This document shows, piece after piece, positions 9,001-12,000 of a DNA stretch of 64,000 nt. A program made the position numbers. This DNA comes from a virus (lineage: Duplodnaviria; Heunggongvirae; Uroviricota; Caudoviricetes), in IMG/VR virus record IMGVR_UViG_2718218305_000006. One strand, written 5' to 3'. The first letter of the stretch is position 1, and every line of letters begins with the position of its first letter.

Positions 9001-12000
9001 CGTGTGGCTGATAACAACGTTCAGCAGGAACAGCCAGCGCCAGAAGAAACCACCACGGCAACAGAAGCGAAAATCTCAGAGTGCGATTTAACCGCGACGA
9101 TTGAACAACGCGGACCACAAACGGCGGATGAACTGGCTACGCTGTTCGGTACAACATCCCGCAAAGTTGCTTCAACGCTGGCAATGGCAATCAGCAAAGG
9201 TCGTCTGATTCGCGTAAACCAGAACGGTAAAATTCGTTACTGCATACCAGGTGATAATTTACCAGCAGAGCCGAAAGTTGAATCGGTAGCGGAAACCGAT
9301 GGTAAAGCCTTTCCTCAGCCAGCCGGTGTTGCGTTACCGGTACAGAAAGATGCAACACAGGAAGATATTAAAACAGAAACTGTGGCGGACATTGTGCAGT
9401 CGCTGCCATCGTTTACTGCAACGCGAGAAGATGATTTGATTTTGCCATCGCTGCATATGGCAAATCGCGAACTGCGTAGGGCGAAGAATCATGTCCAGAA
9501 GTGGGAGCGAGTCTGCGCCGCGCTGCGGGAGCTGAACAAGCACCGGGATATGGTTGCCGGGATTTGTCGGAAGTCCGGGCAATGAGCGGATGGTGCAGGC
9601 CTGAAATCATGATACTAACAATGAAGGTAAAATGCATCGGCAGTCTGATTGGTCGTAGTGAGGCGGCGGTCAGGATGAAAGCCCAGGTTAAGGGAATAAG
9701 CCTGATTCTGCGGGGTGATTTTCACCAGTCAACAAAATATCCGTAGCGCGATAACGGTCAAAAATTATGGCGCTGACACTTTTGTGCCACTGGAGATGAC
9801 TGTACCTAAGTTCAGGGGAGAAGAACACGTCCGGTGGGATGGTCGGGCCAGATTTAAAGGGCAGGTCATGGCTCCAGCCTGTACGCTGGCAATGGAGGCT
9901 GCCTGGCGGGAAATTGATATGGGAACCACGCCACTCAGGGATTTACTGCCGGTCCAGAGAATAAATTCCTGTTACGGTTACACCACTGTGATCTTGCAAG
10001 TGCAGGAAAGTAGGTCTACACGGTAACGCGAGTGCGTGTAACTTTTGATGTCATTCCCGTAGAAACACCGGACAAATTTTCGCTGACAGGTCATGCAGAA
10101 GGTATAAATCTGCAGATTATGGACAATTACGGATATCCGGCAAGAGCCGGAAAAAGCATGCCGCCTCTAATTCTCAGTGGAAGATGGACTTGATTATACT
10201 CATTGCATTGTCAGAAATAGTTATCCATTAAAGGCTGGCTATTCCAAACAGGATGTTGATTACAAAAATGTAATCAACATGTAAGGTTTATACTCTTCAA
10301 TATGCGTATAATTTTCCTTATTTTGTTGACTTTAAATAACAAGCTATGCACGAGGTAAAGTCGGATAAGTTTATCTGGATGTAATATATATTATTTGTAG
10401 TGTTTATAACTTTATTTCATGATAACCAATAAAAGGAGTTTTTTATGAGGAACATAATGGCAGGTTTTTTAATATTCCTGTCTTCTGCTGCTTATGCTGA
10501 TATCAATCTGTATGGTCCTGGTGGCCCGCATACAGCCTTGCTTGATGCAGCCAAACTTTATGCCGAAAAAACAGGTATTATAGTGAACGTTCATTACGGC
10601 CCACAGAACAAATGGAATGAAGATGCCAAAAAAAATGCAGATATCTTGTTTGGCGCATCAGAACAATCTGCTCTGGCTATCATTCGGGACCATAAAGACA
10701 GCTTCAGTGAAAAAGATATTCAGCCTCTTTATCTGCGAAAAAGTATTTTACTGGTAAAGAAAGGTAATCCTAAAAATATCCGGAGTATTGACGACCTGAC
10801 CAGACCTGGGATTGGCGTAATTGTTAATGATGGTGGTGGTACCAGTAATACATCAGGCACTGGCGTCTGGGAAGATATTGCCGGACGTAAAGGGAATATA
10901 GAAACTGTCGCCGCAATCCGAAAAAATATTATTTTATATGCGCCCAATAGCGGAACTGCACGTAAGGCTCTTGAGAATCAGCCTGGAGCAGATGTCTGGA
11001 TAACCTGGGCTGACTGGGCAGCCAGTAATCCAGAAATTGGTGATGTCGTGGAAATAGCGCCAGACTACGTGATATGGCGTGATATGAACATTACAGTACG
11101 TCAGGATGCAAATGATGAAACCCGTCGATTTGCAGAATGGCTACAAACCGATGAAGCGGCGCCTGCATTCAAAAAATATGGCTGGACCAGGAAAGGCACT
11201 TGACATCCTCGTCCTTCAGGACGTGGATTCTTTTTCCGGATGCCGCGCCAGCGGCATGTAGGGGCAGCTCACAAAACGGAAAAAATTGTACGCTAAGCCT
11301 CGCCAGGTGAACTGAATTCATTCCGATATGGGAATTCCCATATCGGGCGAAAACGGTTTGCTGTAACGGCAGAGTTAAGTAGGATTGCTGCGGGTGCTTG
11401 AGGCTATCTGCCTCGGGCATGAACACCAACGGCAGATAGATAAAAGCCCCACCCGACTATAAATCGAAGTGAGGCCCCTATATGCTCGTCACATATAGAT
11501 TGCCTCTTACGGACCGAAAGGTCAAGGAGAAGCAGGCTATGAAGCAGCAAAAGGCGATGTTAATCGCCCTGATCGTCATCTGTTTAATCGTCATAGTGAC
11601 GGCACTGGTAACGAGGAAAGACCTCTGCGAGGTACGAATCCGAACCGGCCAGACGGAGGTCGCTGTCTTCACAGCTTACGAACCTGAGGAGTAAGAGACC
11701 AGGCGGGGGAGAAATCCCTCGCCACCTCTGATGTGTCAGGCATCCTCAACGCACCCGCACTTAACCCGCTTCGGCGGGTTTTTGTTTTTATTTTCAACGC
11801 GTTTGAAGTTCCGGACGGCGCCGGAATAGAATCAAAAATACTTAAGTAGCGCGCAGGGAGAAGAGGGATGGACCCCGAACAGGGGAGTGCTATTTATCTG
11901 GAAGGATTCTGTTGATGAGAATCGAAGAATTACGTGAAATTTTTAGTGAAGATGGCCTCTATACTGTGCGCGTTGAGAAGGGCGCTATTGTCAGCCACTG

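Follow-up and report, generated by a model that had tools for sequence, protein, structure and literature searches.

The described systems closest to the locus considered here are hok/sok (parB) of plasmid R1 and hokW-sokW of phage 933W and Sakai prophage Sp5. 3′ processing, decay of the RNA duplex by RNase III, and killing on loss of Sok have been shown for R1 hok/sok and hokW-sokW (PMC9841398, PMC8621323), and the Sp5 locus is an experimentally working toxin-antitoxin pair that depends on RNase III and Hfq (PMC8621323). Here we analyze a hok/sok-type type I toxin-antitoxin locus and the perfect 24-bp palindrome next to it in the virus record IMGVR_UViG_2718218305_000006 (Caudoviricetes). All coordinates refer to the complete 64,000-nucleotide stretch, called the window. 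At the level of sequence the locus is a canonical hok/sok toxin-antitoxin system in which all the defining features are present. The palindrome lies upstream of the predicted hok promoter and appears to be the core of a reverse-oriented remnant of a KilA-N gene, a relic that is most likely inert or has at most an accessory role. We consider this combined reading highly probable. The hok/sok locus is already known, being annotated as hokD in RefSeq. The derivation of the palindrome from a covarying palindrome in KilA-N coding sequence is the sole nonroutine result and is offered as a lead, with its function putative.

Architecture of the hok/sok cassette

The preliminary description of this DNA had proposed a hok/sok-type locus with an intact Hok-family gene, and both parts hold. 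The 51-amino acid (aa) open reading frame (ORF) matches HOK_GEF with 77.2 bits against a cutoff of 22 (E 7e-22), and it is accompanied by a mok frame, a hok leader, and a Sok-like unit (Table 1). The search for an overlapping mok frame returned one that contains hok, and its coordinates correspond one-to-one to those of the annotated mokW of phage 933W. The Rfam search likewise recovered the leader, with a score of 103.9 bits for RF01794 against a gathering score of 59. This family is labeled "sok antitoxin," yet what it describes is the leader of the sense-strand hok mRNA, starting at the 5′ end of the message and ending at the hok ATG. Both matches in the window (11392–11541 and 63378–63553) are on the hok-sense strand, and therefore strand calls based on RF01794 are inverted.

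Both promoters were placed through homology rather than through a generic promoter scan. The predicted hok promoter belongs to a region conserved with 933W hokW, and its −10 box occupies −12 to −7 relative to the predicted start at 11392. In plasmid R1 hok, the mutationally defined −10 TATGAT likewise occupies −12 to −7 (PMC9841398). The full-length mok-hok mRNA predicted from this start has a folding energy of −163.8 kcal/mol (z −6.4), with tac and fbi paired in the minimum-free-energy structure. Sok had been expected on the opposite strand, and a sokW equivalent with its own promoter is predicted there from the sequence. The predicted Sok RNA covers the mok Shine-Dalgarno sequence and start codon, and its predicted fold has two hairpins, one at the 5′ end and a terminal one with UUUU after it (z −4.1). 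Its promoter aligns with the region upstream of sokW in 933W (TTGCCT-N17-TAACCT). A Sok-like antisense promoter and a Sok-like structure are both found at the sequence level. These assignments fix the boundaries of the known cassette, with the promoter beginning at about 11357 and the RNA extending from 11392 to 11786.

The hokW-sokW locus of 933W/Sp5 has the same architecture and is 87.5% identical in nucleotide sequence over 457 nt, from the promoter to fbi. HokW of 933W and the window Hok are of equal length and differ at six residues, mok is a 70-aa frame in phase with hok in both loci, and the two Sok promoters occupy corresponding positions. The window copy differs in being without a segment of about 21 nt in the Sok/leader stem-loop, and it is nearer to the Rfam consensus length. 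It also differs in its surroundings, since it lies in a PPompW-type prophage downstream of paa with the KilA-N fragment upstream, whereas 933W has another small ORF there. In plasmid R1, mok is out of frame with hok; the window mok shares the frame of hok and encloses it, which is the arrangement of the chromosomal and prophage loci. The regulatory logic is that of R1 hok/sok, with the same position of the −10 box, the extreme-5′ tac element with its fbi partner and, as predicted for the window copy, mok-coupled translation and an antisense Sok (PMC9841398). HokW, which is nearly identical to the window toxin, shares just 44% protein identity with R1 Hok (PMC8621323). The window protein carries in RefSeq the name HokD, that of the hokD (relF) product of the K-12 Qin prophage, and presumably it differs from RelF by about one residue. 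The K-12 hokD locus is not known to have the upstream mok, sok, and tac elements, all of which the window copy has.

We infer how the cassette would work from its homology to R1 hok/sok and hokW-sokW. A weak constitutive promoter would produce the mok-hok mRNA of about 395 nt from 11392. In the full-length RNA, the 5′ tac would pair with the 3′ fbi and, according to the established hok/sok model, keep the message untranslatable. Slow trimming from the 3′ end would then open the mok ribosome-binding site, with translation of Hok coupled to that of mok. The short, unstable Sok RNA would pair with the mok start region and lead to decay by RNase III. Hok would be produced, and the membrane damaged, only once Sok is no longer replenished.

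Table 1 Features of the hok/sok cassette and of the sequence upstream of it, in window coordinates
Feature	Coordinates	Strand	Details
paa (AcfC-family adhesin) intrinsic terminator	11210–11232	+	stem CGTCC/GGACG, then T-run; ends the upstream transcription unit
Orphan KilA-N-domain gene fragment (45 bp)	11311–11355	−	equivalent of ..S-x-D-M-G-I-P-I-S-E-L-I-Q..; palindrome is its core
Perfect 24-bp palindrome CCGATATGGGAATTCCCATATCGG	11323–11346	both	−69 to −46 from predicted hok start 11392
Predicted hok promoter	11357–11385	+	−35 TTTGCT 11357–11362, 17-bp spacer, −10 TAGGAT 11380–11385
hok leader	11392–11541	+	Rfam RF01794, model 1–157 in full; ends at hok ATG
Predicted full-length mok-hok mRNA (~395 nt)	11392–11786	+	predicted start to intrinsic terminator
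tac element (mRNA 5′ end)	11392–11403	+	pairs with 11744–11756 in minimum-free-energy structure
Predicted Sok antisense RNA (~49 nt)	11490–11442	−	from alignment to annotated sokW misc_RNA of 933W
mok frame (70 aa)	11482–11694	+	ATG 11482; in frame with hok and contains it; GAGG Shine-Dalgarno upstream
Predicted Sok promoter (inside mok)	11497–11525	−	−35 TTGACC 11525–11520, 17-bp spacer, −10 CAATCT 11502–11497
hok toxin gene (51 aa) MKQQKAMLIALIVICLIVIVTALVTRKDLCEVRIRTGQTEVAVFTAYEPEE	11539–11694	+	no internal stop; Pfam PF01848 HOK_GEF
fbi element (3′ partner of tac)	11744–11756	+	just 5′ of terminator; plasmid hok homology stops exactly here
hok mRNA terminator	stem 11763–11780, then T-run	+	from terminator scan

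Position and origin of the palindrome

The sequence of the 24-bp palindrome was verified as first described. No other spacer-less perfect palindrome in the 64 kb is as long; the next longest have 18 bp, and the number of such palindromes of at least 24 bp expected by chance is 0.004. It occurs once in the window even with three mismatches allowed, and none of 100 shuffled sequences gave a match. Two overlapping perfect 18-bp palindromes, GGCAGGGGATCCCCTGCC and GCCGTTCATATGAACGGC, are located at 52121–52153. As RNA, the 24-bp palindrome forms an independent hairpin on either strand. An E-value search with Rfam of 11100–11900 and of three KilA-N loci found no family that covers it. A CRP-like or other known operator was also weighed as an identity for the half-sites and rejected as a poor match.

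Several comparisons bear on the relation of the palindrome to hok. Homology between the window and plasmid hok loci is confined to 11384/11389–11756, that is, from the predicted 5′ end through fbi. The 933W hokW locus aligns from about 11347 on (AAAACGGTTTGC, with the −35 box included); upstream of this point 933W carries another small ORF and lacks the palindrome. Conversely, in two other E. coli prophages, L004 and L005, the palindrome and roughly the next 45 bp are present, followed by genes for IbrB-like and PAPS-reductase proteins on the opposite strand, without hok. A 597-bp hok query has matches at 10,895 places in 4720 Escherichia coli genomes, and the 162 bp upstream of hok at 2092 places in 766 genomes. 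When the hok RNA was forced to extend farther 5′ in the folding model, the palindrome paired only with itself and the tac/fbi pairing was unaltered. A scan of species-representative genomes with the flanks alone (CTGAATTC..AAAACGGTTTGC) gave 24 matches, all in unrelated taxa and attributable to chance, and among them no palindrome-plus-hok arrangement. Judged from sequence, the palindrome takes no part in the predicted hok/sok RNA; it is upstream of the promoter and separable from hok both ways. The palindrome should thus stay out of models of hok regulation. The site directly after it looks like an exchangeable cargo slot. In L004 and L005 (about 3000–5040), the IbrB-like and PAPS-reductase-family genes stand at the same backbone position in place of hok.

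The source of the palindrome was found in phage genes for KilA-N-domain proteins. A BLAST search against phages showed that ON470614 and PV340546 share 41 bp with the window, within a gene coded on the opposite strand. This gene (12608–13381 in ON470614) encodes a 257-aa KilA-N-domain protein (Pfam E 4e-27); in PV340546, as in a Proteus phage, it stands directly downstream of cI. When 33 KilA-N genes were combined into an nhmmer profile, the profile matched the minus strand of the window at 11355–11311 with 35.5 bits (E 7e-11). On the plus strand the same profile scores 20.4 bits (E 2.8e-6), with the palindrome alone matching. The higher minus-strand score indicates that the flanks match too, in the KilA-N orientation. 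The palindromes in the KilA-N genes of ON470614, PV340546, and Proteus phage PQ539422 share with the window, on its minus strand, the same 22–24 bp together with roughly 10 nt to either side. They differ in being in frame and part of the KilA-N domain, whereas the window fragment is a noncoding 45-bp orphan of about 15 codons whose frame is interrupted by TGA right after ..PISE. The profile gave no further KilA-N match in the window beyond the orphan fragments, and an intact KilA-N ORF (PF04383) was not found there.

Phage vB_EcoS-666R9 (ON470614; L007, 933–2354) has an intact KilA-N gene that starts about 355 bp from a hok/sok leader and is divergent from it. Its hok/sok leader scores 101.5 bits with Rfam, and its hok ORF is frameshifted to 41 aa. 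The arrangement in the window looks like a KilA-N/hok neighborhood of the vB_EcoS-666R9 type in which the KilA-N gene has shrunk to 45 bp around the palindrome. Mosaic recombination probably left the KilA-N remnant beside hok, and insertion of the paa cassette would then have replaced the sequence farther left. A hydrophobic ORF of 34 aa was displaced by this cassette, and the window again matches the backbone of related prophages from about 11300 on.

Constraint in intact KilA-N genes and possible roles of the orphan

Where the KilA-N gene is intact, the palindrome is read in frame as D-M-G-I-P-I-S, a part of the KilA-N domain. The palindrome-bearing subfamily of these genes (L244–L403, L240–L243) is seen in phages of E. 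coli and Proteus, a cyanophage, and metagenomic phages, and a Bacteroides phage has the outer arms only; some remote family members are without the palindrome. Codon use was analyzed in 33 distinct genes with a mean amino acid identity of 71%. Their conserved amino acid columns typically have 1–2 bits of synonymous codon entropy. The palindrome codons GAT (Asp), CCC (Pro), and ATA (Ile) are nevertheless present in 33/33 genes, and CCC and ATA are among the least-used Pro and Ile codons at the other conserved columns of the same genes.

In distant homologues the protein is altered and the palindrome is still perfect. The sequence CCGATGCGGGAATTCCCGCATCGG encodes D-A-G-I-P-A-S, TCGAAACGGGAATTCCCGTTTCGA encodes E-T-G-I-P-V-S, and CGATACCGGAATTCCGGTATCG encodes D-T-G-I-P-V-S. 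In CCGATATCGGAATTCCGATATCGG, a change of Met to Ile (ATC) is offset by a synonymous change of CCC to CCG, and the cyanophage version reads CGATATCG-GGAAGA-CGATATCG. The motifs D-M-G-I-P-I-S, D-A-G-I-P-A-S, E-T-G-I-P-V-S, and D-I-G-I-P-I-S are each encoded by a perfect palindrome of 22–24 bp. Among 38 distinct sequences, double-sided changes affect 9/11 palindrome pairs. Compensatory cells number 39 compared to 11.9 ± 2.5 in shuffles, with none of 500 shuffles reaching the observed value. The covariation score is 0.289, and shifting the partners by one to three columns gives no more than 0.08. Given the protein sequence, 8.0 of the nine core pairs are observed compared to 5.9 under randomization of synonymous codons. 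RNAalifold returned the palindrome hairpin as the sole consensus structure in an 81-nt segment. The outer stem GAATTA/TAATTC of the E. coli KilA-N genes was also considered and rejected, having no family-wide support in RNAalifold. These data show that the palindrome in intact KilA-N genes is constrained at the nucleotide level.

The mismatches in the arms comprise 6 G-T and 12 A-C. G-T is not favored over A-C, and therefore strict symmetry at the DNA level or templated copying from arm to arm is at least as likely as a hairpin in the sense-strand RNA. Quasipalindromes are hotspots of template switching, in which one arm is copied from the other. The KilA-N arms resemble such sites in that they change together, with strict Watson-Crick pairing and no excess of G-T. 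Persistence of the palindrome across proteins that are only 35–45% identical argues for selection as well as template switching. We found no description of a palindrome in KilA-N genes in full-text searches of the literature or in Rfam. The window palindrome may be an orphan of a deeply conserved DNA or RNA hairpin in KilA-N coding sequence of temperate phages as far apart as those of enterobacteria and cyanobacteria, either a selected cis-acting element (for example, one that controls a toxic kil-type gene) or a recombination-prone site that makes mosaic junctions, and orphans could then stay active. We put this forward tentatively, as a possibility with somewhat less than an even chance. If true, a KilA-N coding palindrome long held by covariation and orphaned at mosaic junctions would be a new cis-acting phage element or a natural case of self-perpetuating quasipalindrome evolution.

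The preliminary description had instead placed the palindrome in the conserved hok mRNA leader, where it would aid the fold-back that controls translation. The palindrome is less than 70 bp from the leader and forms a very stable hairpin, both of which fit this idea, and the leader itself stands as the RF01794 match that begins at 11392. However, three lines of evidence (the RF01794 match, the extent of homology with plasmids, and the geometry of the promoter) put the 5′ end of the RNA at 11392, which leaves the palindrome 46–69 bp upstream of the start. RNA folding did find a fold-back, formed by tac (11392–11403) and fbi (11744–11756), in which the palindrome is not involved. The absence of the palindrome from 933W hokW and from the plasmid hok loci and its presence without hok in L004 and L005 also stand against a part in the leader, which we regard as very unlikely. 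We give equally little credence to the palindrome as the transcription terminator of the upstream gene, paa here and the 34-aa ORF elsewhere. A stable GC-containing stem does lie directly downstream of the ORF in related prophages, but the terminator scan did not call it. No T-run is present past the stem on either strand (plus, GCGAAAACGG; minus, AATGAATTCA), and paa has a separate canonical terminator (Table 1).

The orphan may also have been kept for local work. Its hairpin could act as a roadblock that shields the hok promoter and the exact 5′ end from read-through out of the phage early-right operon. Alternatively, the palindrome could bind a protein immediately 5′ of the −35 box. In most related prophages the palindrome starts 7 nt after the stop codon of the 34-aa hydrophobic ORF, on the same strand as hok. 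The plus-strand flanks lengthen its hairpin through G-U pairs, giving the 61-nt segment 11305–11365 a folding energy of −28.1 kcal/mol compared to −20.7 kcal/mol on the minus strand. Against such a role, no T-run follows the palindrome on either strand, hence it is no intrinsic terminator, and a 1-nt deletion in one arm breaks the symmetry in 25 of the 123 related prophage copies. These copies were gathered by a DNA pattern at the 3′ end of the 34-aa ORF; nearly all are near-identical E. coli sequences, too uniform for covariation analysis. Furthermore, 933W hokW is without the palindrome and the Sp5 hokW-sokW locus works as a toxin-antitoxin pair, and paa has its own terminator upstream in the window, so little read-through is expected. 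The functional evidence for the orphan is mixed, and we consider a local insulating or binding role a minority possibility and unlikely.

A canonical hok/sok cassette beside an inert or at most accessory KilA-N leftover is the reading we prefer, and several points weigh against it. To the left of the orphan fragment beside hok, three different contexts are seen (the 34-aa ORF, paa, or a kinase gene), which may mean that the fragment was kept for function. The noncoding copy at 63270–63317 has a compensatory change of A-T to G-C, which may also mean retention. Other isolated copies of the palindrome are found at intergenic spots of unrelated phage contigs, for example in a nin-like region of L154, and were counted for retention as well. 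With respect to the cassette, the Sok −10 box CAATCT is poor, both start sites are predictions from homology and promoter geometry, and neither promoter was flagged by a generic sigma-70 scan, whose thresholds exclude boxes as weak as these, among them the hok −35.

Genomic setting and a second hok/sok locus

Many E. coli O157:H7 strains have chromosomal sequence 100% identical to positions 11204–11800 of the window, and in these RefSeq names the identical ORF "type I toxin-antitoxin system toxin HokD" (WP_032287685.1). Matches to at least 80% of the hok query were found in 713 genomes, and the locus is 100% identical to the hokD-annotated loci of hundreds of O157 genomes. In strain TR01, the matching locus is within a lambdoid prophage with the order dicB, cI-like gene and cro, replication genes, paa, hokD, DUF968 gene, rusA, tRNA genes, and lysis genes. 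A phage collection assigns this ompW-integrated prophage to the type PPompW. The paa cassette (10445–11300) has a GC-rich hairpin at 11241–11258 in addition to its own terminator. In 933W, too, hok is preceded by a small hydrophobic ORF (27 aa), as is the second hok of the window (26 aa, 63184–63264).

A second hok/sok locus is located at 63378–63703 in a second prophage, and its leader (63378–63553) scores 117.1 bits with Rfam. Codon 4 of this hok copy is TAA, where the first copy has CAA, and mok is truncated as well. A restart of translation at the internal ATG (63566) would give a protein of 45 aa; failing that, the second copy is probably a pseudogene. A second and more decayed KilA-N fragment at 63317–63270 (nhmmer E 1e-5) lies upstream of this locus; it has a 1-nt deletion along with its compensatory change.

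Other Rfam matches in the window include two DicF small RNAs, one per prophage (4223–4274 and 55021–55072). The region 16168–16779 has two tRNAs followed by STnc100 and the anti-GcvB small RNA AgvB. An ALIL frameshift pseudoknot at 21484–21600 is taken by us to mark an IS3-family insertion sequence.

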